A stretch of 35,469 nucleotides of DNA, taken from positions 1-35,469 of the IMG/VR virus record IMGVR_UViG_3300016474_000374; one strand, given 5' to 3'. Below the pieces are notes generated by a model that ran no database searches, was not told the origin of the DNA, and was given only the letters and a program-made list of their open reading frames with translations. This DNA is from a virus. Its lineage: Duplodnaviria > Caudoviricetes. Made by a program: the position numbers and the translations under genes. The stretch's first letter is position 1, and each line of letters starts with the position of its first letter. This document shows, in pieces, positions 1 through 33,026 of the stretch.

Positions 1-2
1 AT

Positions 3-12845: not shown

Positions 12846-12994
12846 TGTACAAATATAAATTATGGGTAAGAATTAATTCTTACCAAACTGCTGAGACTAT
12901 TGTATATGCTAATAATGATTACGAAGCCAAATTGTTAGGAGAAGCGCAATATGGTACAGGTAATGTTCTTAACTATACGAGGATAGATGAATGA
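12845..12994 (+). CDS. Small hypothetical protein (49 aa, not in ORF track)
   Basis: MYKYKLWVRINSYQ...YTRIDE; TAATG and ATGA overlaps fill the gap exactly. Confidence 0.7.
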   Translation: MYKYKLWVRINSYQTAETIVYANNDYEAKLLGEAQYGTGNVLNYTRIDE

Positions 12995-13683
12995 ATACTA
13001 CAATTTTGCATGAACCATTCAGGTATTTAACTGCTAGTGAAATTAATACTAAAATGGCTGGTGTCTATAAACATATGGCACTAGCTGTTTTGGTTAGTAT
13101 GCTTACAGCATTTTCTGTTAGTACTGTTCCAGCACTGATGGCATTTTTATTTACAGGCTGGATGAAGTATATAGTAATGTTCCTGCCCTTAGTGGCAGTT
13201 ATTGGAATGTCAGTGGCATTGAATTCTAATCCCCCTAAAGCACTCGCGCAACTAATGTTGCTAGGGTTTTCTGTTATTATGGGGGTAAGTTTTGCCACTA
13301 TCTTTGCAGTATATAAAATGGGTAGTATCTTCACGGCCTTTATGGGTGCGGGTGTTCTATTTGGTACTATGAGTTTTTATGGTTACTTTACTAAACAAAG
13401 CTTAGATAGTCTAGGTAAGTTTATGTTTATTGGATTGATTGCAATTGTTATTACAAGTATAATTAATATTTTCATTGGCAGTAGTGTTATTGCTATGGTA
13501 GTTAGTGCCTTGGCAATAATCATTTTCCTCGGGCTTACTGCGTATGATACTCAAAAAATAAGGGAAATGATAACTGATGGCGATCAGGACAATGTAGAAG
13601 TTATTGGAGCGCTGTCATTATATCTAGATTTTATAAATATCTTCTTAAGTTTGCTTCAATTATTCGGAGACAAGAAAGAATGA
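12991..13683 (+). CDS. Bax inhibitor-1/YccA family membrane protein
   Basis: About 7 hydrophobic segments, TAYDTQKI and ALSLYLDFINIFLSLL. Confidence 0.93.
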   Translation: MNTTILHEPFRYLTASEINTKMAGVYKHMALAVLVSMLTAFSVSTVPALMAFLFTGWMKYIVMFLPLVAVIGMSVALNSNPPKALAQLMLLGFSVIMGVSFATIFAVYKMGSIFTAFMGAGVLFGTMSFYGYFTKQSLDSLGKFMFIGLIAIVITSIINIFIGSSVIAMVVSALAIIIFLGLTAYDTQKIREMITDGDQDNVEVIGALSLYLDFINIFLSLLQLFGDKKE

Positions 13684-13982
13684 AAAAAATATTAGTTTCA
13701 TTATTTTTATTATCTTTTTCTTCAGTAGCAGCAGCTAATCCATACGGGCACAGGCATCACCATCATAGACATTGGCATTCTCCCCCTGTTCATCATTGGG
13801 TAGTACCTGCCTTAATTGGCGGAGCAGTAGTTTATGCTGCTACCAGACCCGATCCTGTGGTTGTACAACAACCTGCACCTGTAGTCCTCAATTCTCAATA
13901 TATAATAGTTGATGGCGTAACCTATAAAAAAGAATTAGTGATAATTAACGGTATCTCTCAAGAAATTTGGATTAGACAGTAA
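13680..13982 (+). CDS. Secreted/membrane His-rich hypothetical protein
   Basis: Signal peptide (AAA), [10 protein letters not shown] tract and hydrophobic [11 protein letters not shown]. Confidence 0.65.
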
Positions 13983-14299
13983 TGTTACAAATAACAGACA
14001 AAGCATATAAACAAATTCAATCAGTAATGATTGAAGAAAATACTACAGATGCTCTGCGGGTTTTTGTCCAAGGAGGAGGGTGCTCAGGATTTAACTATGG
14101 ATTTACTTTTGATGAGCAGAAAGATGATGATTTCGTCATGGAAAAAGACGGGATAAAAGTATTAGTAGACGCTATGAGTATGACATATCTTGAAGGTGCT
14201 GAGATAGATTACAAAAAGGATTTTACATCTGCTCAATTTGTTATTAAAAATCCTAACGCCACTACTACTTGTGGTTGCGGTTCTTCCTTTGCTGTATAA
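13982..14299 (+). CDS. erpA: A-type Fe-S carrier (ErpA/IscA, HesB family)
   Basis: [15 protein letters not shown] and [14 protein letters not shown]. Confidence 0.9.
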
Positions 14300-14679
14300 T
14301 GGCTTACTCGGTACAAGTATTAGACCACTACGAAAACCCCCGTAACGTCGGATCCTTTGCAAAGGAAATCAAGAGAGTTGGCACAGGTATGGTTGGAGCA
14401 CCAGCATGTGGTGATGTAATGAAACTACAGATACAGGTGAATGAAGAAGGAATAATTACAGATGCTAAGTTTAAGACTTATGGTTGCGGGAGTGCTATTG
14501 CAAGTAGTTCATTAGTAACTGAGTGGGTTAAGGGCAAAACACTTGATCAAGCTAGTCAAATAAAGAATACTCATATAGCTGAAGAACTTGCACTACCTCC
14601 TGTAAAAATACATTGTTCAATTTTAGCAGAAGATGCTATAAAAGCTGCAATAGAGGATTTCAAAAAGAAATATATCTAA
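14299..14679 (+). CDS. iscU: Fe-S cluster scaffold protein
   Basis: YENPRNVG, PACGD, GCGSAIAS and LPPVKIHC. Start at TAATG 14299. Confidence 0.96.
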   Translation: MAYSVQVLDHYENPRNVGSFAKEIKRVGTGMVGAPACGDVMKLQIQVNEEGIITDAKFKTYGCGSAIASSSLVTEWVKGKTLDQASQIKNTHIAEELALPPVKIHCSILAEDAIKAAIEDFKKKYI

Positions 14680-14680
14680 T

Positions 14681-14854
14681 ATGAAAAATTTTATTATTTT
14701 GAGAAGAGAAATTTGTGATACTTGTGACAGACAAAAAACTACACTTGGTGTTAAAGTATGCAAAGAATGTGGTTGCTCTATTTGGGCTAAGACACAATTA
14801 TCTGCTGCAGTTTGTCCGATAGGAAAGTGGGGTAAAAGTGATAACGCAAACTGA
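14681..14854 (+). CDS. Small Cys-rich protein (DUF6171-like; not in ORF track)
   Basis: RREICDTC...CKECGC...K...CPIGKW, 57 aa. Confidence 0.7.
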   Translation: MKNFIILRREICDTCDRQKTTLGVKVCKECGCSIWAKTQLSAAVCPIGKWGKSDNAN

Positions 14855-15305
14855 TCTTGCACATATGGAAGCGGCTGAAGTATATGCCCGACTATCTAAA
14901 GCTAAAAAATTAAAAGTTGGTGCTATTGTTGTCAAAGATAATAGAGTCATTAGCATTGGTTATAATGGCACACCTGCAGGTTGGGATAATACCTGCGAGG
15001 ATGAGATTACAGTATACGAGGATTGTTATATTGATAATGGTGGCCCGCCAATGCAAGTTGGCACTATTTCGCTAACAACTAGACCAGAAGTAATTCACGC
15101 CGAAACTAATGCTATTGCTAAACTTGCCAGATCTAATGAATCGGGCGAAGGTGCCACAATGTATATTACCCATTCTCCTTGCTATGATTGTGCTAAGATG
15201 ATACACATTGCAGGTATAAAGAAAGTATATTTTAGAAAACACTATAGAAGTAATGAAGGTATAGAATTTTTAAATAAATGTAATATCGATGTGGAGAAAT
15301 TATGA
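14838..15305 (+). CDS. dCMP deaminase
   Basis: GYNGTP, HAETNA and SPCYDC. Confidence 0.93.
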   Translation: MITQTDLAHMEAAEVYARLSKAKKLKVGAIVVKDNRVISIGYNGTPAGWDNTCEDEITVYEDCYIDNGGPPMQVGTISLTTRPEVIHAETNAIAKLARSNESGEGATMYITHSPCYDCAKMIHIAGIKKVYFRKHYRSNEGIEFLNKCNIDVEKL

Positions 15306-15808
15306 ATGGTAATAATAGAGACGGAAAGATAGGAATAACAGCATCTACCTTTGATCTTTTTCATGCAGGACATATCGTTATGCTAGAAGAAGCTAAAAGA
15401 CATTGTGATTGGCTTATTGCTGCTATTCAATTAGACCCAACTATTGATAGACCTGGCGTAAAAAATAAACCAGTCCAATCAATAATTGAGAGACAAATTC
15501 AAGTGAGTGCTTGTAAATTTGTAGATGAGGTTATAGTTTATTCTACTGAAAAAGAATTAGAAGATATTTTTCTTACTCTTCCTATAGACATTAGAATTCT
15601 AGGCGAGGAATATAGAGACAAAGAATTCACCGGTAAAAATGTTTGTATAAATAGAGGTATAGAATTACACTATAATAAAAGAGATCACTACTTTAGTTCC
15701 ACAGATTTAAGGACTAGAGTCTTTGATGCGGAACTAAAGAGGCGAGGGAAGTTATGGGACGAAAACAACACTTCGAATGTGTCGAATGTGATGCAGTCTT
15801 TAAAATAA
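15302..15808 (+). CDS. Cytidylyltransferase (TagD-like)
   Basis: TFDLFHAGH and C-terminal SST motif. Confidence 0.88.
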   Translation: MNGNNRDGKIGITASTFDLFHAGHIVMLEEAKRHCDWLIAAIQLDPTIDRPGVKNKPVQSIIERQIQVSACKFVDEVIVYSTEKELEDIFLTLPIDIRILGEEYRDKEFTGKNVCINRGIELHYNKRDHYFSSTDLRTRVFDAELKRRGKLWDENNTSNVSNVMQSLK

Positions 15809-15912
15809 ATTTTGATTTAGACGAAGATTATTACAATGTAGCATATTGTCCCTTTTGCGGTTCGGAAATGGATGAAGATCAACAAGATGATTACGAGGAT
15901 GATGAATTATGA
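15754..15912 (+). CDS. Small zinc-ribbon protein with acidic tail (not in ORF track)
   Basis: MGRKQHFECVEC...YCPFCG...DDYEDDEL, 52 aa, with ATGA overlap to the next gene. Confidence 0.7.
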   Translation: MGRKQHFECVECDAVFKINFDLDEDYYNVAYCPFCGSEMDEDQQDDYEDDEL

Positions 15913-16505
15913 GATATAGTTGGTATTTAGATAATCAACACGCAGATGAACTATGGTGTTACCATAACAATCTTTTCACACCAGAAGAATGTGAAAAGAT
16001 TATAACAATCGGGCACACACCTGAATTAGTAGATTTAGATTATGCCTCCGTCGGTGGTTCTGATGATGGTAAGGTAGACTTCAATATTAGAAAATCCACT
16101 ATTGGTTGGGTGCCGATTGCTGATCAAACAGTATGGATTTTTCAGAAATTGACTGATGCTATTAACGGCATCAATAAAGGATTTTTTAATTACGAGCTAT
16201 CTCATATTGAAAACCTACAATTTACTATGTACAAAGACGATGGTGAATACTATGGTAGGCATATTGATATGATGTATAAATCAAATGCCACTAGAAAATT
16301 AAGTTTTTCTGTTCAATTAACTGATCCAAGCGACTATGAGGGTGGAGAATTTCATTTGATTGCTGGCAAGGATCCTAATATTCTACCTAAAGATCGAGGG
16401 ACTTGTTTGTTCTTCCCAAGCTGGTCTTTACATGAGGTAACTCCTGTGACCCAAGGCACTCGTTATGCTTTAGTTGGATGGGTATGCGGTCCAAGATTTA
16501 AATGA
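15909..16505 (+). CDS. 2OG-Fe(II) oxygenase (PKHD/prolyl-hydroxylase type)
   Basis: HID...RKLS...YEGGE...HEVTPVTQGTR. Confidence 0.9.
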   Translation: MRYSWYLDNQHADELWCYHNNLFTPEECEKIITIGHTPELVDLDYASVGGSDDGKVDFNIRKSTIGWVPIADQTVWIFQKLTDAINGINKGFFNYELSHIENLQFTMYKDDGEYYGRHIDMMYKSNATRKLSFSVQLTDPSDYEGGEFHLIAGKDPNILPKDRGTCLFFPSWSLHEVTPVTQGTRYALVGWVCGPRFK

Positions 16506-16837
16506 AGGATTGTCCAAAGTGTGGAACATTGCACAGTAAACCGGGGAAATTTTGTTCTCGGGCCTGTGCAAATTCGAGACAATGGACAGACGATCACAAA
16601 AAGATTTTCTCTGAGAAACAAGCTGCCTATATGGCAAGAGATGAATCAGAGGAACACCGAGCCAAAAAGTCTATACAAGCTAAGATGTTACACAAGATAG
16701 GCGCAATGGGACGAGGCCCGGCTACTGAGATTCCTGAAGATGTAATGACAAATCCAGATGACTATTTTCTAATCGCGCCTCGTATTGATGTTGATGGTAA
16801 GTTCGTTGAAGGAGGAGATCTATGGGAGGAGGTGTGA
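16502..16837 (+). CDS. Hypothetical protein with N-terminal Cys4 zinc finger
   Basis: CPKC...FCSRAC. Confidence 0.65.
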   Translation: MKDCPKCGTLHSKPGKFCSRACANSRQWTDDHKKIFSEKQAAYMARDESEEHRAKKSIQAKMLHKIGAMGRGPATEIPEDVMTNPDDYFLIAPRIDVDGKFVEGGDLWEEV

Positions 16838-16867
16838 TAAATACTGATTTAATTACAGTATACACAC

Positions 16868-17266
16868 ATGTCTCCATGGAATTTTAAAAACAAACCTCTC
16901 ACTAACATTCCTGACGGTGCCTATGGTTTTGTCTATCTAATAGAAAATAAGCAAAATAACAAGAAATATATTGGTAAAAAACTATTTTGGTTTACTAAAA
17001 CTAAACAAGTAAATAAGAAAAAGAAAAGAGTTAAATACGAATCTGATTGGAGAGATTATTGGTCAAGTTCTCCTGATGTACATAAAGATGTAGAACTGTT
17101 TGGTAAAGATAATTTTGAGAGAACTATACTACATGTATGTCCTAATAAAGGATCTTGTAATTATCTAGAAGCTAGAGAACAAATGGATAGAAGAGTTCTC
17201 GAAACTGAAGAATATTATAATGGTACCATACAGTGTAGAATACATAAAACACATGTAAAACTCTGA
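16868..17266 (+). CDS. GIY-YIG endonuclease, T4 EndoII-like
   Basis: GFVY...KYIGKK, YWSS and conserved E and YN. Confidence 0.8.
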   Translation: MSPWNFKNKPLTNIPDGAYGFVYLIENKQNNKKYIGKKLFWFTKTKQVNKKKKRVKYESDWRDYWSSSPDVHKDVELFGKDNFERTILHVCPNKGSCNYLEAREQMDRRVLETEEYYNGTIQCRIHKTHVKL

Positions 17267-17273
17267 GGTTGTT

Positions 17274-18434
17274 ATGAAAATTGCTGTGATCGGTGCTGGT
17301 ATTGCAGGCGTAACTGCTGCATATTATCTGGCAAAAAATAAACACGATGTAACTGTCTTTGAAAAAGAACCATACTCAGCTATGAAATGTTCTTTTGCTA
17401 ATGGCGGGCAATTGTCTGTTTGTAATTCTGATGTATGGAACACGTGGTCTAATATAGTCAAAGGTGTTAAATGGATGCTAAAAAAGGATGCACCTTTACT
17501 AATTAGGCCTGATCTTGATTGGCAAAAGGCTACATGGTTATTTAAGTTTGTTCAGTCCACGCTGAGAAAAGATGCAGAAAAAAGAACTTTGGATATCATT
17601 TTACTTGGTATGAAATCCAGAAGATTATATAATACATTAGCTCGTGCTGAGAACATTAAGTTTGATTATAATCAATGTGGCATACTAAGATTTTATAAGA
17701 ACACTGAGTATTTTGATTCAGCCAAAGCTATGACGAGATTATATCTCGATGCCGGAGTAAATTGGCAGGTAATCAACAGCCAAGGATGTCTCGAGGTCGA
17801 ACCAAGATTATATCATGTAAAGAATGAAGTAGTGGGAGGCATCTTGTCTCCAGATGATTCAGTCGGGGACATTCATAAGTTCTGTACTAATCTCTCATCT
17901 ATTCTCGAAACAAGATATAATGTAAAGTTCATATACAATCACAAGGTAAAAGCAATCGCTGAGCTATCAGAATATGATAGAATAGTTATAGCAAATGGAT
18001 CAGATGCTTGTGAATTTATGATAGATAATCTTTGTGTATATCCGGTTAAAGGTTATAGCATTACAATTAATAATGGGCATGGATCACCTGCAGTGTCATT
18101 ACTAGATGATCAAGCAAAAATAGTTAGTTCGAGACTTGGTGATAAACTTCGAGTCGCTGGCACTGCAGAACTAACTGGGCATAATCAAGATATTACTCGA
18201 TCAAGAATTACGCCTTTACTTAAATGGGTAAAGACTAATTTTCCTAATATGAATACAAGCGATTACTCGCAATGGGCTTGTCTCAGACCAATGACTCCGG
18301 ACATGATGCCAATAGTGAAACGCTCAGAATTTAATTCAAGAGTTTACTATCACTGTGGTCACGGTCACTTAGGTTGGACAACAGCACCAGCCACTGCGCT
18401 GAGACTCGCTGAGATGATGGACGCTGAGACATGA
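17274..18434 (+). CDS. dadA: D-amino acid dehydrogenase (FAD-dependent)
   Basis: GAGIAG, SFANGGQLS, YPVKGYSIT, LRVAGTAE, LRPMTPD and GHGHLGWT. Confidence 0.88.
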   Translation: MKIAVIGAGIAGVTAAYYLAKNKHDVTVFEKEPYSAMKCSFANGGQLSVCNSDVWNTWSNIVKGVKWMLKKDAPLLIRPDLDWQKATWLFKFVQSTLRKDAEKRTLDIILLGMKSRRLYNTLARAENIKFDYNQCGILRFYKNTEYFDSAKAMTRLYLDAGVNWQVINSQGCLEVEPRLYHVKNEVVGGILSPDDSVGDIHKFCTNLSSILETRYNVKFIYNHKVKAIAELSEYDRIVIANGSDACEFMIDNLCVYPVKGYSITINNGHGSPAVSLLDDQAKIVSSRLGDKLRVAGTAELTGHNQDITRSRITPLLKWVKTNFPNMNTSDYSQWACLRPMTPDMMPIVKRSEFNSRVYYHCGHGHLGWTTAPATALRLAEMMDAET

Positions 18435-18833: not shown

Positions 18834-19138
18834 TGATGAGAAAAAAGCGAACCGACAGACGTCACATCGTGTACCTCCTACAGAATGCTGTAACAGGCGA
18901 ATCTTACGTCGGGGTTACACAGGGTTTTCGGCAGAAAGATCTTCGTGTGAGGGTTCTGAAGCACTTTCAGAGGGCCCTTAGCGAGGCCAAGAGCTGGACA
19001 CTGTGCAAGAACATACGCCAGTACGGACCCGAATCTTTCGTCTGGACAGTGCTGGACGTCGTCAGGGGCAAGGGCACTGCTCACGCTCTAGAACTTGAGC
19101 TCTTGTCCAAGTACGCTCCGGAGTTGAACTCCAAGTAA
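18833..19138 (+). CDS. GIY-YIG family nuclease, probably leaderless
   Basis: HIVY...SYVGVT...R...H...E...LN. No SD; ATG coincides with predicted +1. Confidence 0.75.
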   Translation: MMRKKRTDRRHIVYLLQNAVTGESYVGVTQGFRQKDLRVRVLKHFQRALSEAKSWTLCKNIRQYGPESFVWTVLDVVRGKGTAHALELELLSKYAPELNSK

Positions 19139-19198
19139 CCCTTCATTTGACTCGGGTTACTGCAGAACATATAATATGGGTATAGTGAAAAACAGGAG
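19136..19198 (+). promoter_or_regulatory. Early promoter element copy 2
   Basis: TAACCCTTCATTTGACTCGGGT; TTGACT(19147)-17-TATAAT(19170); ATAGTGAAA; AGGAG. Confidence 0.88.
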
Positions 19199-22436: not shown

Positions 22437-22871
22437 ATGGGTTTAGATATGTACTTAAAGGGCAAGGTGTACTTAGACTACAATAGTCCAGAGCGCGAAG
22501 AAATTGCTGAGATGTTGGATATCAAAGGCTATGATGTGAGTAGTGTAACTGTTGAATTAGGTTACTGGCGTAAGGCAAATCACATTCACAAATGGTTTGT
22601 CGATAATGTACAAAATGGAGTTGATAACTGTAGTGAGTACCATGTTAGAAAAGAGGATCTAGAAACTCTATTACTTATCTGTAAACAAGTAATAGAAGAT
22701 AAATCTAAAGCAGCATCATTACTGCCGACTCAACAAGGATTCTTCTTTGGAGCCCAACAGTATGATGCTTGGTATTACGATGATTTAGAATCAACTGTAG
22801 AAATAATTGAGAATGCTTTAAAGTTTTACAACGAAAAAATGGTAGACATCTATTATGATTCGAGCTGGTAA
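22437..22871 (+). CDS. Conserved phage hypothetical protein (MGLDMY...YWRKAN type)
   Basis: Recognisable motifs; C-terminus YYDSSW. Confidence 0.7.
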   Translation: MGLDMYLKGKVYLDYNSPEREEIAEMLDIKGYDVSSVTVELGYWRKANHIHKWFVDNVQNGVDNCSEYHVRKEDLETLLLICKQVIEDKSKAASLLPTQQGFFFGAQQYDAWYYDDLESTVEIIENALKFYNEKMVDIYYDSSW

Positions 22872-23146
22872 TGGCACATATAATTCGTGATGGTGAGATC
22901 GTTCCTATTGCTATACCTGTAGGTAAACGTGTAAAAATTGGTTCAGCGTATATTGCTCCTTTGGAGAATCATATTGCTAATGATCAACTATGGGTACAAG
23001 ACGTATTCACATTCAAAACACTTCCATGGTACGCTATTAAAAACAGACTAGAACGTTACTTAGTTCTGTGGACACTATGGGGTGCAGCATTCTACATTCT
23101 TACTTTTATTGGTAGATATTTAGGCGCAAAGCCGGGGTGGTTCTAA
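22871..23146 (+). CDS. Hypothetical membrane protein
   Basis: C-terminal hydrophobic segment. Confidence 0.6.
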   Translation: MAHIIRDGEIVPIAIPVGKRVKIGSAYIAPLENHIANDQLWVQDVFTFKTLPWYAIKNRLERYLVLWTLWGAAFYILTFIGRYLGAKPGWF

Positions 23147-23388
23147 TGAATTTTAATCGTTTTGATTTTGAACAGCAAATGCTAGAATGCTGGGGTGTTA
23201 CCAAAGACATCAAGACAATATATGAAGGTGTTTGTGATTCTAGTCCTCCAATGACTGAAGATCAAATTGCTAATGCTTTGCTTGGACTAGAAACTTTATA
23301 TGAATTAAAGTTTAACAAACTTTGGTCTATGTTTGAGCAAGGTGTACTTCAGCAACCAATTAATAGCACAAAGGAAGAAAATGTATAA
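23146..23388 (+). CDS. Hypothetical protein
   Basis: TAATG coupled; RFDFEQQ...CW motif. Confidence 0.65.
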   Translation: MNFNRFDFEQQMLECWGVTKDIKTIYEGVCDSSPPMTEDQIANALLGLETLYELKFNKLWSMFEQGVLQQPINSTKEENV

Positions 23389-23641
23389 TTGGCGGGATAC
23401 TCCTACTATGAATTACTACTACAGAGAATCTGATGGTAGAATCATGGGTGCTGCATGGCATGCAGCACTTAATGCAAATTTTTATTCTTCAAAGATTTAT
23501 ACTGAGACTTTTCCCTTCACCAATGATTGTGAAAAGTATATTGGGCATTTCATCAATGAAGGTGATGCTAAGAGATCTATAGAAAAATATTGGTTGCAAC
23601 AATCTAATACTTTAGAATACGATGAAAATAGTAATAAATAG
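23381..23641 (+). CDS. Hypothetical protein
   Basis: AAGGA SD before ATG 23381. Confidence 0.6.
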   Translation: MYNWRDTPTMNYYYRESDGRIMGAAWHAALNANFYSSKIYTETFPFTNDCEKYIGHFINEGDAKRSIEKYWLQQSNTLEYDENSNK

Positions 23642-23948
23642 ATGCTTCGGTGGTTTTAATTTATCCGAAGAAGCTCATGCCTTTATTGCCAAGCGTAAAG
23701 GTTGGCAGCATGCTTGTGATGACTGGGACAATGATTACTGGTACAGTGAACCCGGAAAGCCAGTATATTCTAGTGATCTTAGTCGCAACGACTCTGACCT
23801 AGTAGCTGCTGTAGAAGAATTAGGTGCAGGTGCTAACGGTCGCTATGCCGAACTAAAGATAGTTAATGTGCCAGATGAAGTAGACTGGCACATTAGTGAG
23901 TATGATGGGTTAGAAGAAGTGCATGAATGCCATAGGAGTTGGTTATGA
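23622..23948 (+). CDS. Conserved phage hypothetical protein (MKIVIN.CFGGF type)
   Basis: Motifs INRCFGGFNLS and EYDGLE.V.E.HRSW. Confidence 0.75.
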   Translation: MKIVINRCFGGFNLSEEAHAFIAKRKGWQHACDDWDNDYWYSEPGKPVYSSDLSRNDSDLVAAVEELGAGANGRYAELKIVNVPDEVDWHISEYDGLEEVHECHRSWL

Positions 23949-24172
23949 ATAAGAAAACAATAGAACTTGCTAAACAAGCAGGATTTGTATTCTGGGAGGA
24001 TGAGGAATGGGGCCCTGGTTCAGAATATATTGATTGGACTACTGATTATGACAAAGAACTAGAAAAACTAGTCGAACTGGTAGTGCAGGAGTGTGCAAAA
24101 TCCGTCCAGCATATAAAAGTGTGGGATACCGATCTTGGCGAAATTATTACAGAGAAATTTTACGCAAAATGA
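23945..24172 (+). CDS. Divergent member of the MNERI...HFGVEE paralogue family
   Basis: MNKKTIELAKQAG...KLVELVVQECA. Confidence 0.65.
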   Translation: MNKKTIELAKQAGFVFWEDEEWGPGSEYIDWTTDYDKELEKLVELVVQECAKSVQHIKVWDTDLGEIITEKFYAK

Positions 24173-24996
24173 AACTAGCAATATGTTCTGATCTTCATCT
24201 TGAGTTCGGCGATATTGCCCTCAAAAATGAGGGTGCCGACGTCTTGATTCTTGGTGGTGATATTATGACTGCTCAGGAATTACATGAATTCAAAGCAAAC
24301 GATACTAAATTTGCCGATGAATTAACTAGACGAGGCATTGCAGAAAGATACAGAGAATTTTTAGCTAGGTGTAGTGCAGAATTTCCTCACGTTATCTATA
24401 TTGCTGGTAATCATGAGTTCTATCATGGTAAATATCCTGATGCTTACAATTACCTAGAAGAAGAATGTAAAGCGTTTAACAATGTATACTTCTTAGAACA
24501 GAGATCAAAACAGATTTGTGATGTGACCTTTATCGGGGCTACGCTGTGGACTGATATGAATGAAGGTGATAGAAATACTCTATTAATCGTTCAAGAGATG
24601 ATGAATGATTACAGAATCATTCGTAATAGTACTCGTAAATATGCCAGACTTACTCCCTCAGACACTGTAATTAGGCACAAAAATACTCTCAAGCATATAA
24701 AAACTGTTGTGGAGTCTGATACAAATAAAAAGTATGTGGTTGTAGGTCACCATGCTCCTAGTAAGAAAAGTGTCAAGCCAAGGTATGCAGAGGATGTAGA
24801 AATGAATGGCGCATACAGCAGCGATCTTGAGGAGTTTATATTAGCTCATCCTCAGATCAAGTTGTGGACACACGGACATACCCATGACGTATTCGATTAC
24901 AATATAGGAGATACACGCATTGTCTGTAATCCACGAGGATACATTGGCTATGAATCGCAGGCCGAAGAGTTTACTCTTAAGTATGTGGAAGTATAA
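24169..24996 (+). CDS. Calcineurin-like metallophosphoesterase
   Basis: SDLH, GD, GNHE, HH and HGHTH motifs. Confidence 0.92.
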   Translation: MKLAICSDLHLEFGDIALKNEGADVLILGGDIMTAQELHEFKANDTKFADELTRRGIAERYREFLARCSAEFPHVIYIAGNHEFYHGKYPDAYNYLEEECKAFNNVYFLEQRSKQICDVTFIGATLWTDMNEGDRNTLLIVQEMMNDYRIIRNSTRKYARLTPSDTVIRHKNTLKHIKTVVESDTNKKYVVVGHHAPSKKSVKPRYAEDVEMNGAYSSDLEEFILAHPQIKLWTHGHTHDVFDYNIGDTRIVCNPRGYIGYESQAEEFTLKYVEV

Positions 24997-25196
24997 TGAG
25001 TGCAGGATTTAACTTTAAAAGAAGGCAAAATGCTATGAGGGCTACTGTTGAAGTTCAATTCGATGAATACACTGGAGATTATTTTTTAGAATTACCTCCA
25101 GATATTCTGAAAGCTGCTAATTTAGACGTAGGCGATACCATTGTTTGGAAAAAATTAGATGATGATTCCTGGACTATTGAAAAGCAGATGAAATAA
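24996..25196 (+). CDS. AbrB/MazE/SpoVT-like DNA-binding domain protein
   Basis: LELPPDILKAANLDVGDTIVW swapped-hairpin pattern. Confidence 0.7.
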   Translation: MSAGFNFKRRQNAMRATVEVQFDEYTGDYFLELPPDILKAANLDVGDTIVWKKLDDDSWTIEKQMK

Positions 25197-25216
25197 ATAT
25201 TTCTAAAAGGAATCAG

Positions 25217-25498
25217 ATGCAAACTTTTAGAGATCATTTAGAAGAAAAACTCAAAGGATCCCACGGCAAAGCCTGCTGGAAGGGGTATCGTCGCAAAGGT
25301 GTAGACGATTGCGTAAAGGTATCAGAAAATTTTGCTGATGGACGCAATCCTCAAGATAAAGGCGATATGGCTCGGCATGGATTAAAGGGTAAAACAATTA
25401 CCCAACTCAAAGCAATACGATCATCAGATTCTGCTTCTCCAAGACAAAAACAACTTGCCCATTGGCGCATCAATATGACACAGGGTAAAAAGAAGTAA
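25217..25498 (+). CDS. Basic protein, putative internal head protein
   Basis: N-terminus MQTFRDHLEE, CWKGY...CVK and ENFADG; late-promoter-like AATAAATA at 25192. Confidence 0.55.
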   Translation: MQTFRDHLEEKLKGSHGKACWKGYRRKGVDDCVKVSENFADGRNPQDKGDMARHGLKGKTITQLKAIRSSDSASPRQKQLAHWRINMTQGKKK

Positions 25499-25568
25499 CC
25501 CTTTGGCTTGCTCGGACACTTGACACGGCATACTGCAGGTGTTATAATTATGGTATAGTGAGAGGAAC
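25496..25568 (+). promoter_or_regulatory. Early promoter element (variant)
   Basis: TAACCCTT...TTGACA(25520)CGG-17-TATAAT(25543) with extended TGn; ATAGTGA. Confidence 0.85.
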
Positions 25569-25572
25569 ATAT

Positions 25573-25779
25573 ATGATTACGATTCATGGTCTTACCCCTA
25601 CCCAACACGCAATCGCAGACAAACTCTGGACCGCAGAGTCGCCTGATGCTATCACTGCACTGATGCTAGTATTCGGCAAAGCAGAAGTAAAAGTCGTTAT
25701 GGAAATGATGACACTTGCTGCTTTAGATCAGATTGAACCAGACCTTGATGATGTTGCTAATTACTTGAGGAAGTTCTAA
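25573..25779 (+). CDS. Hypothetical early protein
   Basis: GAGGA SD; first gene after a promoter. Confidence 0.7.
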   Translation: MITIHGLTPTQHAIADKLWTAESPDAITALMLVFGKAEVKVVMEMMTLAALDQIEPDLDDVANYLRKF

Positions 25780-26079
25780 ATGAAATTCAAATACATTACT
25801 AAGAAACCTGATCGTGATCAACTATGGGGAATGTCACCAAGTCAGTTTAAGACTTTACTCAAGCGTAAAGGGTTTGAAGTTGACAGAGACTTCTTTAAGA
25901 TGGGTGCTATGGCTAAGAAAGGCAATCGGCTGTATCGCTTTCGTTACTGGGCATTCCCCGACTTCTTTGTAGATATCAGCTGTCCTCTCAATGAATTTGA
26001 TCGTTGGGCAAATAGTGTTGATCGCACTATTAATTTCTATAACTTTCTTGAGTTAGATAAAAAGCCTACTGAAGTATAG
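25780..26079 (+). CDS. Hypothetical protein
   Basis: 99 aa ORF with GAGG SD. Confidence 0.65.
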   Translation: MKFKYITKKPDRDQLWGMSPSQFKTLLKRKGFEVDRDFFKMGAMAKKGNRLYRFRYWAFPDFFVDISCPLNEFDRWANSVDRTINFYNFLELDKKPTEV

Positions 26080-26080
26080 C

Positions 26081-26383
26081 ATGGCAAATAAAATAGATAA
26101 GTATTTCATTGTATCAGGGAACCATGCCGAGTATAAAGACTGGGTCAATAAAAAACATATCTTTTATCCCGACAATAATCTACATGATTTTATCTATGTT
26201 CACAGTTTAATCGTATTCCGTGGGTATGCTAACCCCCATGGATTTTTTATCGGCACTTTTAGACATAGAGCAGACTTACATGAAATTGTACTAACCATAA
26301 TTATGTGTAGTCATGACATGAGCAATCAATCTAAAGCTAAATTAATAAACAGTATTTTACCACCAGCACAACCTGCACCATGA
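26081..26383 (+). CDS. Hypothetical protein (paralogue of the 21217 C-terminal domain)
   Basis: YFIVSGN...HGFFIGTFRHR. Confidence 0.6.
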   Translation: MANKIDKYFIVSGNHAEYKDWVNKKHIFYPDNNLHDFIYVHSLIVFRGYANPHGFFIGTFRHRADLHEIVLTIIMCSHDMSNQSKAKLINSILPPAQPAP

Positions 26384-26625
26384 GTGATTTCGCTAAACGC
26401 AGATGGGAAATAGACAGAGCCCGGAGTAAAAAGATGCAGGAGCTCATGGAAGAATATGATAAGACTGTCTATTATCCTGCCAAGAATGCCTTGATTAAAG
26501 AATGTGGTGAGATAGGCCATCGAGGCGGAAAATATCATGACAATGGATTCGGTTGGTCATGGTTCTATTGTGGCGGATGTGGGGGTCGTTACGACATAAC
26601 CGGTCCCAACGGAGAGAAAAAATGA
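26380..26625 (+). CDS. Hypothetical protein with Cys/His zinc-binding motif
   Basis: CGEIGH...CGGC. Confidence 0.65.
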   Translation: MSDFAKRRWEIDRARSKKMQELMEEYDKTVYYPAKNALIKECGEIGHRGGKYHDNGFGWSWFYCGGCGGRYDITGPNGEKK

Positions 26626-26948
26626 GTGAATATCTAGATAAGGATGGTTATCCTACTGAAGAAGCACTTGACAAGATAGAGAAATGGCATTATAATGATC
26701 CTAGAGGATGGTTCAAGTTTATTGAGAACATCTGGCATCTACGTAGTTGGGGATGGTCAGAAGGTTACTTTAAGGAAAATGAAACTGATCCAGCAGACAA
26801 ATATCAATATCACATCAGCACCGCTGGTTGGTCTGGTAATGAGGACATTATAAGGGCCATGCAAGAGAATAACATTCTTTGGTACTATACCTGGGTGCAG
26901 ACTCGCCGAGGCGGGCATTATATTTTTGAGGTGAAAGATGAAAACTAA
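26622..26948 (+). CDS. Trp-rich phage hypothetical protein
   Basis: DGYPTEE, STAGWSGNE and RGGHY. Confidence 0.7.
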   Translation: MSEYLDKDGYPTEEALDKIEKWHYNDPRGWFKFIENIWHLRSWGWSEGYFKENETDPADKYQYHISTAGWSGNEDIIRAMQENNILWYYTWVQTRRGGHYIFEVKDEN

Positions 26949-27294
26949 ACACGAAATTATTACTGCCATGTGTGTTACTTTTAGGCATGATTATGGACTA
27001 CCTAAAGAAAATTATAGAATAGAAGGTACCCATAATCCACTGTCACCTGGAATGACCAAGCAAGAGCAGGAAACTCTTTATAATACAATGCTAAAGATTT
27101 ACACTAATGCTATAGAACCGTATATGGTAATCAGGGGCGAAGCATATATTCCACAACCCGATAAAGATGCAGTACTCGAGCGAGATAAATATCATTATCA
27201 AATTCGATTCTTAGAAGAACGATTAGAAATTTCTGAAGAGCATTTAGATAAGGCTATGGATATGTTACGTAATCTAATTACTAAATTGAAATGA
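26938..27294 (+). CDS. Hypothetical protein
   Basis: GAGGTG SD, MCVTFRHDYGL and a C-terminal coiled coil. Confidence 0.65.
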   Translation: MKTKHEIITAMCVTFRHDYGLPKENYRIEGTHNPLSPGMTKQEQETLYNTMLKIYTNAIEPYMVIRGEAYIPQPDKDAVLERDKYHYQIRFLEERLEISEEHLDKAMDMLRNLITKLK

Positions 27295-27512
27295 AACATC
27301 CAAATCCTGATTGTGACCGTCATTGTAAATTTGTGTATGGATATAGCGTGACTACTGCCATGTACTATAATCCTGTCTATGACAAGCATGGTAATAATTT
27401 GAATCCAGACGGCAATATTACAAGTGGAACCATTGACTGTATAGAATGCCATAAACGATGGTCATACTCTACACAATATGATAAAACAACATTTAGTGAG
27501 GTTATAGGGTGA
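27291..27512 (+). CDS. Cys-containing hypothetical protein
   Basis: CDRHC...CIEC; ATGA overlap. Confidence 0.65.
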   Translation: MKHPNPDCDRHCKFVYGYSVTTAMYYNPVYDKHGNNLNPDGNITSGTIDCIECHKRWSYSTQYDKTTFSEVIG

Positions 27513-27730
27513 ACATTGAATCACAAGCAAGATGGTACGCAATCAAGTTAATCTTGATATACTTCAGCATCTTAGCGGCCTTATTGATTATAGGCTATAT
27601 TGATCTATTTTATTTGTTCGTTGGAGCGGGTGCGATGTTTGGTATAATGATAGCCAGTGCCATATACAGGGATGCCTACCATGATAAACTATGGGAGTTG
27701 AAGAGAAGTGACCAATCAAGAACTAATTAA
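27509..27730 (+). CDS. Two-TM membrane protein
   Basis: Two hydrophobic segments; GTGA overlap. Confidence 0.6.
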   Translation: MNIESQARWYAIKLILIYFSILAALLIIGYIDLFYLFVGAGAMFGIMIASAIYRDAYHDKLWELKRSDQSRTN

Positions 27731-27845
27731 TACCCTGCGTAAGGCTAGTGAAAGCCAAGATAACATAGCATTGAAGATGTTATTGATTATGGCTGCTGAA
27801 AGAATGGAAAGATTACATAGTGCTCTATATGGAGACAAGACATGA
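27708..27845 (+). CDS. Small hypothetical protein (45 aa, not in track)
   Basis: GTG start, TNQELINTLRKA...GDKT; ATGA overlap with the next gene. Confidence 0.55.
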   Translation: MTNQELINTLRKASESQDNIALKMLLIMAAERMERLHSALYGDKT

Positions 27846-28021
27846 ACGAACGAATTCAAGAACTTGCCGAACAGGCTCTGTTTGAATCTGATTTTGATGA
27901 TGAGCAGAATATTAAAATCACTATGGATATTTTCGCCGAGTTGATCGTTCGTGAATGTGCAAGTAAAGTGACCCGTAATGAGGCTTTGAACATTTTAGAA
28001 CATTTCGGAGTTGAAGAATGA
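27842..28021 (+). CDS. MNERI...HFGVEE family member (59 aa, not in track)
   Basis: MNERIQELAEQA...FAELIVRECA...HFGVEE. Confidence 0.85.
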   Translation: MNERIQELAEQALFESDFDDEQNIKITMDIFAELIVRECASKVTRNEALNILEHFGVEE

Positions 28022-28185
28022 AAGATGAGCGCTTAGAAATGCTAAGTGATAAGGTTCGCATGGGTGTACCTATTGACTTTAAAGAAGCGATTGAGGTTAT
28101 AGATTATCAAATGAAATTGCAACAAGAACGAAAAAACAATTCTTGGATTTACAAAGTGCGAAGATTTTTTGGATTTGAACAATGA
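28018..28185 (+). CDS. Small hypothetical protein (55 aa, not in track)
   Basis: MKDERLEML...FFGFEQ; ATGA overlaps at both ends. Confidence 0.7.
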   Translation: MKDERLEMLSDKVRMGVPIDFKEAIEVIDYQMKLQQERKNNSWIYKVRRFFGFEQ

Positions 28186-28394
28186 ACACCATTAGATTAT
28201 GTAAGCGAGAAATAGAGAGAATTAAAGAACTCTTTGATACCATTCATACCACTGGCAATGTAGGATTTGTTACTCTGACTCAACATGATGAAGAATCTGG
28301 TATTGGATATGAACTCAGAGCAACCTTTCAGATTACTCACAAAAACACCGATGGTGATTTTGTCGTCACTATCACTGACCACAGAGATTGGTAA
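28182..28394 (+). CDS. Hypothetical protein
   Basis: Coupled ORF with SGIGY motif. Confidence 0.65.
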   Translation: MNTIRLCKREIERIKELFDTIHTTGNVGFVTLTQHDEESGIGYELRATFQITHKNTDGDFVVTITDHRDW

Positions 28395-28558
28395 TGGGAA
28401 ATACTTACGAAGTTAAGGCATGGGAATCAGCAGTAGGTAGTGACCACTTTTACTGGTTAGAGATATACCGAGGTGAGAGCTTACTTAAAGCGTTATACAA
28501 TCTTTGGTGGTGTAAACGCAATGGTTGGAAGTGTATAAAATTAGAATATCGCCCATGA
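28394..28558 (+). CDS. Small hypothetical protein (54 aa, not in track)
   Basis: MGNTYEVKAW...EYRP; overlaps at both ends. Confidence 0.65.
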   Translation: MGNTYEVKAWESAVGSDHFYWLEIYRGESLLKALYNLWWCKRNGWKCIKLEYRP

Positions 28559-28809
28559 ATAAATTCAAACACCACTGTCCTGACTGGGACTTTATGCTTA
28601 TTGATAGGCATGATTCAGAGTTTGAATGCTGTACCTGTGACTTCTCAGATATTCCTATCGCTATAGAAGTGCTTGATGATCTAATGGGTTACAGTGGTGT
28701 TGGCACCGACGGCAATCCATACGACACTCCCTCCTGGAACGCTGCTTTGCGTGCCGCTAAAGACGTAATCAAACAAAGGATTATAAATAATAATGATTTA
28801 ACCCAATAA
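28555..28809 (+). CDS. Hypothetical protein with Cys motif
   Basis: HHCPDWD...EFECCTC; start at an ATGA overlap. Confidence 0.65.
   Translation: MNKFKHHCPDWDFMLIDRHDSEFECCTCDFSDIPIAIEVLDDLMGYSGVGTDGNPYDTPSWNAALRAAKDVIKQRIINNNDLTQ
28782..28789 (+). promoter_or_regulatory. T4-type late promoter
   Basis: Exact TATAAATA 30 bp upstream of the MKTFKQLRE ORF. Confidence 0.7.
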
Positions 28810-28818
28810 GAAAAATAA

Positions 28819-29268
28819 ATGAAAACGTTTAAGCAATTAAGAGAAGCTAATTCTTATTCTAAGCCAGATGAGCATACAGGTGTTATGTCGTACCATGATT
28901 TAGAAGCTCATATTGGTAAACCAAAAGCTCTTTTGATTGCTAAGCACGAACAATTTCAAAAACACATCACTCCTCAAATAAGTTTAGGTGCCAAGGCAGG
29001 TTTTAAGTTTGAAAGACGTCATGGGTTTGAATCTGTCTATGCAGTTCATGGTCCTAATAAGTACGTTGACAAAGAAAAGCCTGGATACAGAACTATGCTT
29101 AGATTTCATCTAAGTGGTAGTGGTAAAAAGGTTACTCAGGTCGATCGTTCTGTTAATCATAATAATGAAAGACATCGTGAAGGTAGTTTAGTTTGGGATC
29201 ATAGAGAGACCTGGGAGCATCCAGTAAACAAACGAGAAAATAAGCGTTTGGCAAAGAGCACAAAGTAA
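28819..29268 (+). CDS. Basic protein with a T4 internal-protein-like capsid-targeting N-terminus
   Basis: MKTFKQLREA resembles T4 IP leaders; late promoter upstream. Confidence 0.6.
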   Translation: MKTFKQLREANSYSKPDEHTGVMSYHDLEAHIGKPKALLIAKHEQFQKHITPQISLGAKAGFKFERRHGFESVYAVHGPNKYVDKEKPGYRTMLRFHLSGSGKKVTQVDRSVNHNNERHREGSLVWDHRETWEHPVNKRENKRLAKSTK

Positions 29269-29340
29269 CCCTTCAGCCCGCTAGGGCTCTTGACTTCTGT
29301 TTCTTTTGACTATAGACTTATGTTATAGTGAAAAAAGGAA
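29266..29340 (+). promoter_or_regulatory. Early promoter element (variant)
   Basis: TAACCCTTC, hairpin AGCCC-GCTA-GGGCT, TTGACT(29290)-17-TAGACT(29313), ATAGTGAAA. Confidence 0.75.
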
Positions 29341-29346
29341 CAGAAA

Positions 29347-29580
29347 ATGAGAGTAGTAAATGATTTCGGACTCGTCAGAGTCATCAGTACCGGTAAAGAT
29401 CCCCGAGTAAGTGGTGCAGATATCCTTGTAGAAGTACGGGATTCTGATACCTCAGCGTGGGAAATTTTCGACAAATTCAACAGTTTTAGCGACGACTACG
29501 CTTTCACCAATGCCCGTGAAGCAGCAGGGCAAGCAATCAAAATTATCGCAGCGCGCAAAGCGCAGTTCCCGAGCATTTGA
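29347..29580 (+). CDS. Hypothetical early protein
   Basis: AAGGA SD; the stop codon lies inside the next -35. Confidence 0.7.
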   Translation: MRVVNDFGLVRVISTGKDPRVSGADILVEVRDSDTSAWEIFDKFNSFSDDYAFTNAREAAGQAIKIIAARKAQFPSI

Positions 29581-29628
29581 CTCGGGAATCAAAAGGTGTT
29601 ATACTATTGTTATAGTGAAAGATAGGAG
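29566..29628 (+). promoter_or_regulatory. Early promoter element
   Basis: TTCCCGAG-CATTTGA-CTCGGGAA; TTGACT(29577)-17-TATACT(29600). Confidence 0.88.
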
Positions 29629-29633
29629 AAGTT

Positions 29634-29831
29634 ATGAGCATGAGTGATCTGGTAATCGGCATTCAAGAAGATATCGAAATGGGTTTGCTCGATTTTCAAG
29701 CAATCGCTAAGAAGCACAAAGTGTCGCTGAAAGACGTAGATTTGTGCAATGCTATGCTGTTGGAAATGTATATGGAGCAAGATCACTGCACTAATGATAA
29801 CTGGTACGACGAACAGTACGAGCTCGAGTAA
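29634..29831 (+). CDS. Acidic hypothetical early protein
   Basis: AGGAG SD. Confidence 0.7.
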   Translation: MSMSDLVIGIQEDIEMGLLDFQAIAKKHKVSLKDVDLCNAMLLEMYMEQDHCTNDNWYDEQYELE

Positions 29832-29892
29832 CCCGTTGCTTGACTCGGGTACCTTTTGGTGTTAGAATAGCGGTATGGTGAAGAACAAGGAG
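29829..29892 (+). promoter_or_regulatory. Early promoter element
   Basis: TAACCCGTTGCTTGACTCGGGTA; TTGACT(29840)-17-TAGAAT(29863); ATG at +1. Confidence 0.88.
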
Positions 29893-29898
29893 TCATAT

Positions 29899-30126
29899 AT
29901 GTTTCAGAGTCAATTTGGTATGTTCAGTTCTGAGGGCGATGAGGCAGTGTCAAGAGTGATTGACACCGCAAAGCGTTTTAATATGCCCTGGCCTAAAGTA
30001 ATATCTTTGATCGAAACTATTACAATGACCCGTCCCAAGGTTCGTGAGATGCGAGATACCGCAGTGCTCGAAGAAATCTTCGATGCCATTGGTTACGATG
30101 AGTCAGTTTGCTTTTACGAGAGGTAG
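29899..30126 (+). CDS. Hypothetical early protein
   Basis: AAGGAG SD; FGMFS.EGD.AV motif. Confidence 0.7.
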   Translation: MFQSQFGMFSSEGDEAVSRVIDTAKRFNMPWPKVISLIETITMTRPKVREMRDTAVLEEIFDAIGYDESVCFYER

Positions 30127-30129
30127 AGT

Positions 30130-30477
30130 ATGAGTCTTGATGTTAGATTAATGATTACCAAGCCAACTGAGGTTTATTCTGGTAACATTACTCACAATCT
30201 AGGCAAGATGGCTAGTAAAGTAGTCTTGGCTAATGGTTTGACTTTGTATAACATTCTGTGGCGTCCAGACGAATGCGAACCTCCACTACAGAAAGCAAGC
30301 GACATCGCAGAACTTCTTGACGAAGCACTAGGTATTCTGATTCAGGACAAGGATCATCTGAAACAATACAACCCGGAGAACGGTTGGGGTAATTATTATG
30401 GTCTTTTTGAACTAGTACACGAATATAGAAATGCTGCTAGAGCAGAACCCAACGCTGATATCGAGGTATGCAGATGA
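30130..30477 (+). CDS. Conserved phage hypothetical protein
   Basis: MSLDV...NITHNLGKMA...NPENGWGNY. Confidence 0.72.
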   Translation: MSLDVRLMITKPTEVYSGNITHNLGKMASKVVLANGLTLYNILWRPDECEPPLQKASDIAELLDEALGILIQDKDHLKQYNPENGWGNYYGLFELVHEYRNAARAEPNADIEVCR

Positions 30478-30734
30478 ACGAACGAATTAGAGAACTTGCA
30501 GAACAGGCTGGAGAATATGTGAATGAAGTTTATACTCCACCTGTGAGATCCAAGACTCCTGGAAAGATTTGGGAGGATGGGCACATCGAGTGGCATACAC
30601 AATTCAATCAAAAGTTCGCCCAGTTGATTGTACAGGAATGTGCCGAGGTTGTCCAAGAGGGTAGATGGATGGTTCCGCCGAGCCAAGAACAACTAGCAAG
30701 AAGCATTAAACAACATTTCGGAGTTGAAGAATGA
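30474..30734 (+). CDS. MNERI...HFGVEE family member
   Basis: MNERIRELAEQA...KFAQLIVQECA...HFGVEE. Confidence 0.85.
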   Translation: MNERIRELAEQAGEYVNEVYTPPVRSKTPGKIWEDGHIEWHTQFNQKFAQLIVQECAEVVQEGRWMVPPSQEQLARSIKQHFGVEE

Positions 30735-30820
30735 ACGAGATTGGTTTGGCACTGCTGGCCTGTTATGTGATAGGTTTTGTCACTGGTTTTGTTTGGGGCT
30801 GGCAAAAGAATTATGATTAG
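30731..30820 (+). CDS. 29-aa single-TM peptide (not in track)
   Basis: MNEIGLALLACYVIGFVTGFVWGWQKNYD; ATGA overlap. Confidence 0.55.
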   Translation: MNEIGLALLACYVIGFVTGFVWGWQKNYD

Positions 30821-30824
30821 AAGA

Positions 30825-31058
30825 ATGAACGAACGAATTAAAGAACTTTTCGTACAGGCTTTAGAAGAATTCAAGGCAGAAAACAAATATGCTACTATCA
30901 TTGTTCCTAATCCCTTGCAAGAAAAGTTCGCCGAGTTGTTGATTCGAGAATGTATGGATCTACTTGAAGATTACACTACAGACGTACACGTGGGTGGTAT
31001 TCAATATAACGTAGTGAGTGCAGAGGAGACTTTACAGAAACACTTCGGACTCGAGTAA
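30825..31058 (+). CDS. MNERI...HFGVEE family member
   Basis: MNERIKELFVQA...KFAELLIRECM...HFGLE. Confidence 0.85.
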   Translation: MNERIKELFVQALEEFKAENKYATIIVPNPLQEKFAELLIRECMDLLEDYTTDVHVGGIQYNVVSAEETLQKHFGLE

Positions 31059-32816: not shown

Positions 32817-33026
32817 ATGATTGAGCGTAATCTACATGCAGCAGGACGTAGAGCTAATGTCCTGTTTGGGGTTGCAGAGGTCGTAGACGGCTTGGTCAGA
32901 GTTCTCAGTGCTGGATTCTTCCATACTCGGTTGACCCTGATCGTTAGCCGTTGGCAGATGCGACGTGCGATCGTTAGCCGTTGGCAGATGCGACGTGATT
33001 TTCAGCGTCGGTCAGTGAGGAGTTGA
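32817..33026 (+). CDS. Hypothetical early protein with internal duplication
   Basis: AAGGAG SD before ATG 32817. Confidence 0.6.
   Translation: MIERNLHAAGRRANVLFGVAEVVDGLVRVLSAGFFHTRLTLIVSRWQMRRAIVSRWQMRRDFQRRSVRS
32939..32997 (+). repeat. Perfect 29-bp tandem duplication (period 30)
   Basis: GATCGTTAGCCGTTGGCAGATGCGACGTG at 32939 and 32969. Confidence 0.95.

Follow-up and report, generated by a model that had tools for sequence, protein, structure and literature searches.

The 35,469-nucleotide stretch of DNA analysed here (hereafter the window) is the whole of virus record IMGVR_UViG_3300016474_000374 and comes from a T4-like phage. It encodes a primase with a match of ~42% to gp61 of T4-like cyanophages, as well as ThyX, NrdA/B and Fe-S proteins, and from ~18.8 kb onward small genes follow one another behind copies of a repeated sigma-70-type promoter. 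Our subject is a family of small proteins encoded there, in which three constant blocks (N-terminal, middle and C-terminal: the N-, middle and C-blocks) alternate with two variable segments, V1 and V2, that reassort between copies and between genomes. The window holds four copies:

27842..28021, plus strand: family copy 1, 59 amino acids (aa); N-block 27842-27877, V1, middle block 27926-27958, V2, C-block 27992-28021
30474..30734, plus strand: family copy 2, 86 aa; N-block 30474-30509, V1, middle block 30609-30641, V2, C-block 30705-30734
30825..31058, plus strand: family copy 3, 77 aa; N-block 30825-30860, V1, middle block 30921-30953, V2, C-block 31032-31058
23945..24172, plus strand: diverged copy 4, 75 aa; middle block differs from the DNA consensus at 11/33 bases; the gene evolves as a whole

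These open reading frames (ORFs) stand where a first-pass annotation, made from the letters alone, had placed them, and both an alignment and the repeat families D8, D9, D10 and D15 bear out its three blocks, as well as its first inserts of 18, 35 and 22 aa. It had written the middle block as FAELIVREC; the block holds, the exact wording does not, the copy at 30474 reading FAQLIVQEC and that at 30825 FAELLIREC. Neither a six-frame motif scan nor a scan with DNA profiles of the blocks, which gave 0 matches in 268,755 shuffled bases, turned up a further full copy in the window. A weak orphan piece of C-block-like DNA (score 12.7) lies at 19105-19128, directly upstream of the promoter at 19147.

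Judged by profile matches, the family is huge, and its carriers are uncultured T4-like phages. Of 7,998 scored candidate clusters, 7,486 match a profile built from the four copies at E<=0.01, and 3,258 representatives at 50% identity match the family profile at E<=0.001. Fifteen large records picked from the collected loci have 1-17 family matches each, the four complete carriers having 17, 15, 12 and 4; the capsid protein Gp23 is present in all four of these and in 8/15 of the large records overall. The four copies have no match in Pfam or PHROGs at E<0.01, searches of NCBIfam (with 92 members) and of the PDB sequences (with the family profile) gave nothing significant, and the ESM Atlas returned unnamed viral clusters only, with no usable named match. 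Among 50,697 records of cultured phages there was no match to copy 1 or copy 2. Full-text searches of the open literature gave no description of the family; subscription journals and supplements lay outside them, and one may exist there. The middle-block motif had 14 matches in cellular genomes, all on contigs of metagenome-assembled genomes of mixed phyla; we rejected these as evidence for a host and read them as binned phage DNA, one of the contigs carrying Gp23. Short ORFs that hold only the N-terminus of Gp23 (G004 160527-160604; G005 13510-13689 and 201018-201194) perhaps encode capsid-targeted proteins.

The population data come from 501 sources (500 loci and the window), collected by two DNA-motif scans, which favour consensus blocks, and three protein scans. 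Their 1,324 profile matches reduce to 933 distinct segments and, once partial, divergent and duplicate matches are dropped, to 594 distinct members with all three blocks parsed. With V1 and V2 classes set at 75% DNA identity, these members comprise 393 V1 classes, 386 V2 classes and 576 pairings, and the Chao1 estimates are ~1,260 V1 and ~1,040 V2 classes. V1 and V2 reassort with next to no restriction. Pairs of members that share V1 differ in V2 in 684/708 cases (the same in 24/708), pairs that share V2 differ in V1 in 396/420 (the same in 24/420), and more than one partner is found for 90/93 multi-member V1 classes and 107/109 V2 classes. Among equal-length pairs the partner is kept in 0/391 at 75-85% module identity, 7/223 at 85-92%, 19/132 at 92-97% and 20/128 above 97%; since partners are lost even at 97% or more, swaps outrun point mutation.

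The window and its relatives supply particular cases, for which three further features are needed:

30609..30920, plus strand: middle-to-middle unit of 312 bp, consisting of V2 of copy 2, a joint, a 29-aa gene, a joint and V1 of copy 3
30731..30820, plus strand: the 29-aa gene, a hydrophobic ORF outside the family, between two copies of the stop/start joint (D10)
28555..28809, plus strand: ORF outside the family, 84 aa; a family member in locus L173 has a V2 module homologous to its C-terminal hairpin

Members P0005-P0008 are V1 of copy 2 joined to V2 of copy 3, and copies 2 and 3 minus the 312-bp unit give this commoner P0005-type gene; the unit may have been inserted or lost. The P0005 cluster has 21 members (from JGI/IMG, ENA, NCBI, Logan and MGnify); copies 1-3 are singletons. 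A relative of the 29-aa ORF is present in 5/364 loci. V1 of copy 2 is paired with 64 V2 groups among 107 parsed proteins, in a search where 115/118 matches carry that V1 because the query did; V2 of copy 3 occurs with four other V1 classes, and V1 of copy 3 with two other V2 classes. The relative L422, 94.5% identical over 1.9 kb, has V2 of copy 3 in place behind a different V1 (the match starts at 30918), lacks copy 1 with the gap exactly at the 12-nt stop/start joint, and has an additional family copy at 28555. In two other relatives (L205 and L372) the slot of copy 1 holds other modules between its N- and C-blocks. The homology between one V2 class and the hairpin of the 28555 ORF indicates that modules are also shared with other genes; outside-family matches were returned for 15/699 module queries, and most of them look like divergent or partial members. 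As to the small genes outside the family in window 22871-28809, they recur at 75-95% DNA identity and in other orders in L349 and L423-L426, so that the shuffling of whole genes at their boundaries is general in the region.

All of these reassortment data are metagenome assemblies, and no cultured phage was matched, which leaves room for the idea that assembly chimeras created the apparent exchanges. We regard this as scarcely credible. Each of the canonical genes (copies 1-3) lies within one unbranched contig with 0 differences, in a run that is possibly the source of the window; the blocks are ~33 bp long, and exact matches in them have a median of 13 bases; one pairing (P0005) is found again in independent sources; and an artefact would yield neither a graded decay of linkage nor a loss of partners that tracks module divergence.

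The position of the crossovers was read from 168 V1-sharing and 202 V2-sharing pairs (at most three per class). In the former the excess identity falls from ~0.8 to 0.4 over the first half of the 33-bp middle block and is ~0.05 after it; in the latter it rises across the block from 0 through 0.2-0.4 to 0.7. The N- and C-blocks show the same gradients. So gradual a decay fits homology-driven exchange and does not fit one cut site, and the breakpoints inside the blocks that had been anticipated for this family are thus seen in these gradients and in L422 as well as in the counts. Tables of joints in contigs mostly reflect other family members, and their entries were not counted as events. The complete carriers all encode RecA/UvsX (4/4), and none (0/4) has an integrase, resolvase or reverse transcriptase (PF00589, PF00239, PF00078), in keeping with the earlier remark that the window lacks such enzymes. 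From the gradual decay, the presence of RecA/UvsX and the missing site-specific enzymes, we consider homologous recombination at coding linkers likely.

A dedicated sequence-specific recombinase or DNA-binding factor that acts on the blocks, in the manner of an integron or shufflon, would have some clues in its favour: a 7-base word is common to the middle and C-blocks, and short inverted repeats flank V1 and V2, with a pairing excess of 5.41 vs 5.33 (p 0.007) and 4.97 vs 4.86 (p<0.001). However, this excess is confounded by subfamilies, stems appear in only 6/40 and 4/40 predicted folds, and neither the single crossover position nor the site-specific recombinase of such systems is found, linkage decaying gradually and the profiles just named matching nothing in the four carriers, although an enzyme of an unrecognised kind could exist. 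Such a factor seems to us quite improbable. An RNA stem as the main cause was likewise rejected, in view of the small pairing excess, its rarity in predicted folds and a mean z of -0.42.

The blocks code for the constant helices. If exchange is by homologous recombination, they would double as recombination joints, with crossovers inside the shared DNA giving rise to the many V1/V2 pairings; the phage RecA/UvsX would perform the exchange during co-infection or between tandem copies. Within-genome homogenisation was considered and rejected: middle blocks of one locus are no more alike than those of different loci (identity 0.804 vs 0.802), and 12/602 within-locus pairs share a module (two of them from one short overlapping locus). 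This equality, across loci of ~36-46% GC, points to a pool shared among phages. In tandem arrays the C-block and the N-block fuse at an ATGA stop/start overlap, so that an array has two DNA joints (the stop/start joint and the middle block) rather than three. The ATGA end is found in 455/594 members, and 82 members continue directly into a family start; the overlap spacing is found in 100/249 C-to-N neighbours. Genes are gained and lost whole at this joint. Short conserved DNA linkers thus flank the exchanged modules, and exchanges between relatives map to them, as in linker-mediated modular shuffling of the Botstein-Campbell kind.

The diverged copy at 23945 offers a natural control. It is 11/33 bases off the middle-block consensus, vs 4-5 in copies 1-3, and 35/37 of its homologues keep its V1-V2 pair, down to 66% identity, in a search that ranks by shared words and favours full-length matches; the remaining two have a related V1 and another V2. 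A copy that has lost the DNA consensus and keeps its pair suggests that drifted copies shuffle little: a copy near the consensus would stay in the shared pool, and one that has drifted would freeze. Gradual, congruent divergence along the whole gene, the pattern that would speak against a shuffled family, is accordingly confined to this copy and is not seen in the canonical members.

The blocks are held both as DNA and as protein. Minority codons dominate them (GCC 247/293, GAG 252/280, vs a background for the same codons in the variable segments of 0.19 and 0.24), as rechecked on 306 members from loci fetched by protein queries. The proportion of synonymous differences (pS) in block cores is 0.32-0.44 between members with unrelated modules, no higher than the 0.37-0.46 between alleles of one module. 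The synonymous-site conservation that had been proposed as a check is therefore present, in the form of homogenised rather than letter-identical blocks (a median of 4/33 mismatches to the consensus). Each variable module is under purifying selection: the ratio of non-synonymous to synonymous differences (pN/pS) is 0.16-0.19 (656/708 and 406/420 pairs of equal length), and pN is below pS in 78/82 and 98/101 module classes. A selfish or neutral repeat, whose blocks spread as recombination joints and whose protein is selected only to fold and be harmless, would account for the silent-site homogenisation, for copy numbers of 1 to 17 matches per record with copies absent in close relatives, and for three loci (L146, L169 and L179) in which the C-block DNA is retained out of frame, ending one gene and restarting the next. 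It would not lead one to expect so low a pN/pS in the variable segments, proline- and glycine-rich loops included, nor middle and C-block cores that are protein-constrained too (pN/pS 0.16-0.28), nor frame keeping that is near-perfect in a DNA-only scan (681/683 N-to-middle and 662/668 middle-to-C intervals). We therefore hold the selfish repeat to be unlikely.

AlphaFold2 predicts three helices in both models, at 3-15, 22-41 and 45-55 in copy 1 and at 3-19, 40-62 and 71-82 in copy 2, with predicted local distance difference test (pLDDT) scores of 91.8 and 91.9; the three-helix scaffold of the first-pass annotation is thus recovered as a prediction (pLDDT 92). The helices extend past the blocks into V1 and V2, and V2 continues the hydrophobic periodicity at both of its ends, so that V2 would be the tip of a helical hairpin and V1 a freer loop. 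A Foldseek search of the PDB with the 59-aa model gave 0 matches at E<=0.001, an absence that does not show a new fold; a VIA search with the same model, a short helical fold that is hard to search, gave no clear match (best Z 5.0, root-mean-square deviation 2.5, 47 aligned), and the top rows from BFVD were uncharacterised phage proteins with template-modelling scores of up to 0.86.

An antibody-like architecture with two variable loops had also been proposed. On such a view V1 and V2 would form one composite site, possibly across a dimer, with each pairing a new specificity. The conserved scaffold and the very large combinatorial diversity (393 V1 and 386 V2 classes in 576 pairings) would suit such a binder, and a dimer could bring V1 and V2 together. 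However, topology puts the two segments at opposite ends of the central helix, of 20 residues, in both models, V2 is partly a helical extension, the modules are conserved through changes of partner, and V1 and V2 are uncorrelated in length (rho 0.00) and barely correlated in charge (rho -0.09). Two independent modules fit these models better than one antibody-like binding site, and we think the composite site improbable.

Because each module is conserved whatever its partner, we take V1 and V2 to be self-contained modules for interaction, mounted on a carrier, and each may separately bind host or defence proteins. The family genes lie downstream of host-type promoters, vary in copy number and have no evident packaging or membrane signal, and their products are acidic (median net charge -6). 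A host-interaction role of this kind is plausible, and we see it as evenly balanced. The whole reading, a three-helix carrier with recombination-shuffled modules, early expressed, and with two independent host-interaction modules, strikes us as somewhat favoured; on this reading new modules may also be traded with other small phage genes. More doubtful, though possible, is a population-wide combinatorial library of mini-proteins, in which many T4-like phages would share the constant three-helix core and its DNA joint. Some thousand V1 by thousand V2 modules would there serve as binders or adaptors with two arms that target host defence or regulatory proteins, the modules being exchanged with other genes and no dedicated diversification enzyme being needed.

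Several points weigh against the reading that we favour. Between random pairs the median exact match in the middle block is only 13 bases, which is short for RecA-type exchange, and another pathway may contribute; reassortment was seen in contigs, not in raw reads. The frozen copy is a single lineage, and in the 594 members two of the three identity bins that hold linked pairs show a like trend, with small counts. The purifying selection could partly reflect folding rather than binding, and the charge per residue of -0.077, vs -0.008 for neighbouring ORFs, is measured against a background that includes spurious ORFs. Finally, the scan of neighbours took in the first 100 families out of 1,016 clusters, with no control set. 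Most of these 100 are unnamed, and Tad3, NAMPT, NMNAT-Nudix, MazG and WYL_2 occur among them; the link to counter-defence concerns only 3/100 families (one Tad3 and two NAD-synthesis enzymes), and no such family was identified in this window. Sequences of Tad3 (6 neighbour sequences), NAMPT and NMNAT-Nudix lie within 2.5 kb of family members in other phages, as at L325:2974-3474, L159:6069-7469 and L180:2884-3900.

With respect to known systems, the family works like the segment exchange of gp38 and the linker shuffling of promoter-stem-loop (PeSL) cassettes, and it belongs to neither. In the gp38 adhesin of T-even phages, conserved glycine-rich motifs are described as a structural core and as suggested recombination hotspots, with hypervariable segments between them (PMC12032242). 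Both there and here, conserved motifs within a gene flank exchangeable variable segments in T4-type phages; gp38 as described there binds receptors as part of the virion and has five motifs and four segments, whereas the family is a multicopy helical protein of 59-100 aa in accessory regions. As far as is known, gp38 is encoded by one gene per genome. The family, unlike gp38, has roughly a thousand estimated classes per module, and it has no sequence or fold match to gp38; its alignments contain no glycine-rich gp38 motifs and it has no Pfam or PHROG match at E<0.01.

For RB49 and phi1, PeSL cassettes are described as conserved linkers that direct the insertion, deletion and replacement of small ORFans in hyperplastic regions, and the part of that account considered here identifies no dedicated recombinase (Arbiol et al. 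2010, PMC2839356). The likeness lies in short conserved linkers that direct the gain, loss and replacement of small genes in T4-type phages. However, the PeSL linkers are non-coding and move whole genes, whereas those of the family code for the protein core and move in-frame half-genes as well as whole genes; the blocks are not a non-coding promoter plus stem-loop, being protein-coding, with unsupported stems and with promoter and terminator calls that do not fall on them as a rule. The internal protein (IP) loci of T-even phages are summarised as small variable proteins exchanged at conserved flanks (Repoila et al. 1994, via PMC2839356). They resemble the family in being small variable proteins exchanged at conserved sequences, but IPs are encapsidated and exchanged whole, whereas the family shuffles internally. 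Its N-termini do not resemble the IP-type packaging motif. Diversity-generating retroelements also diversify variable regions on a constant scaffold in phages, through adenine-specific mutagenesis; the family differs in having variable segments that are unrelated and of differing length and, in its four complete carriers, no reverse transcriptase. As for domain mosaicism, ongoing shuffling of protein fragments, with a proposed arms-race link, is described for receptor-binding proteins, endolysins and polymerases, and the family shares with it the shuffling of fragments; the abstract of that study (Smug et al. 2023, PMC10684548) mentions no small multicopy scaffold family whose joints are homogenised at the DNA level.

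The family offers a clear example from nature of half-genes shuffled in frame at linkers that serve both as protein core and as substrate for recombination, and the drifted copy, which shuffles little, supplies the control. Through it the long-standing linker model of modular evolution in phages can be measured in population data, and so can selection for recombinability. The family comprises thousands of sequence clusters, and none of the libraries searched lists it. Should its modules prove to be binders, they would form a ready-made library in which to look for host or defence targets in freshwater bacteria, as well as a two-armed mini-scaffold of natural origin.

Early expression would start from sigma-70-type promoters, of which three are pertinent:

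25520..25548, plus strand: sigma-70-type promoter, 12/12, upstream of the small-gene run with copy 1; consensus match only
26668-26696: second sigma-70-type promoter site, 12/12; consensus match only
29840..29868, plus strand: repeated sigma-70-type promoter upstream of the run with copies 2 and 3; consensus match only

Metatranscriptome contigs from four runs cover parts of the region and, in three of the runs, reach through V1 of copy 2 to 30629; we did not count them as evidence of expression, as they show neither strand nor level and may hold DNA. Fifteen sigma-70-type promoter repeats occur between 18798 and 34455 (e.g. 19147, 29577, 29840, 31067, 31509, 33469, 34005 and 34427), and in most of them a short inverted repeat has the -35 box in its loop or next to it, with a conserved ribosome-binding stretch following. 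They form a PeSL-like cassette, and L422 gains or loses small genes near such sites. Two basic ORFs (25217-25498 and 28819-29268), each ending directly before a promoter repeat, have no Pfam or PHROG match. Their N-termini resemble the packaging motif of the T4 internal proteins.

The sequencing runs that contain the window's words come from fresh, estuarine, aquaculture and some marine waters. Its auxiliary genes at 12991-18434 encode a Bax inhibitor-1, IscA-type and IscU-type proteins, a 2OG-Fe(II) oxygenase and an FAD-dependent oxidoreductase, with a GIY-YIG directly downstream; the Fe-S genes could aid in naming the host. At the start of the window (1-950) is the end of a fibre-like ORF with internal repeats (repeat families D6 and D7), followed by a subtilase at 950-2599. 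Towards its other end, two exact 29-nt copies, 30 nt apart (D19), lie at 32939-32997 within a small ORF.

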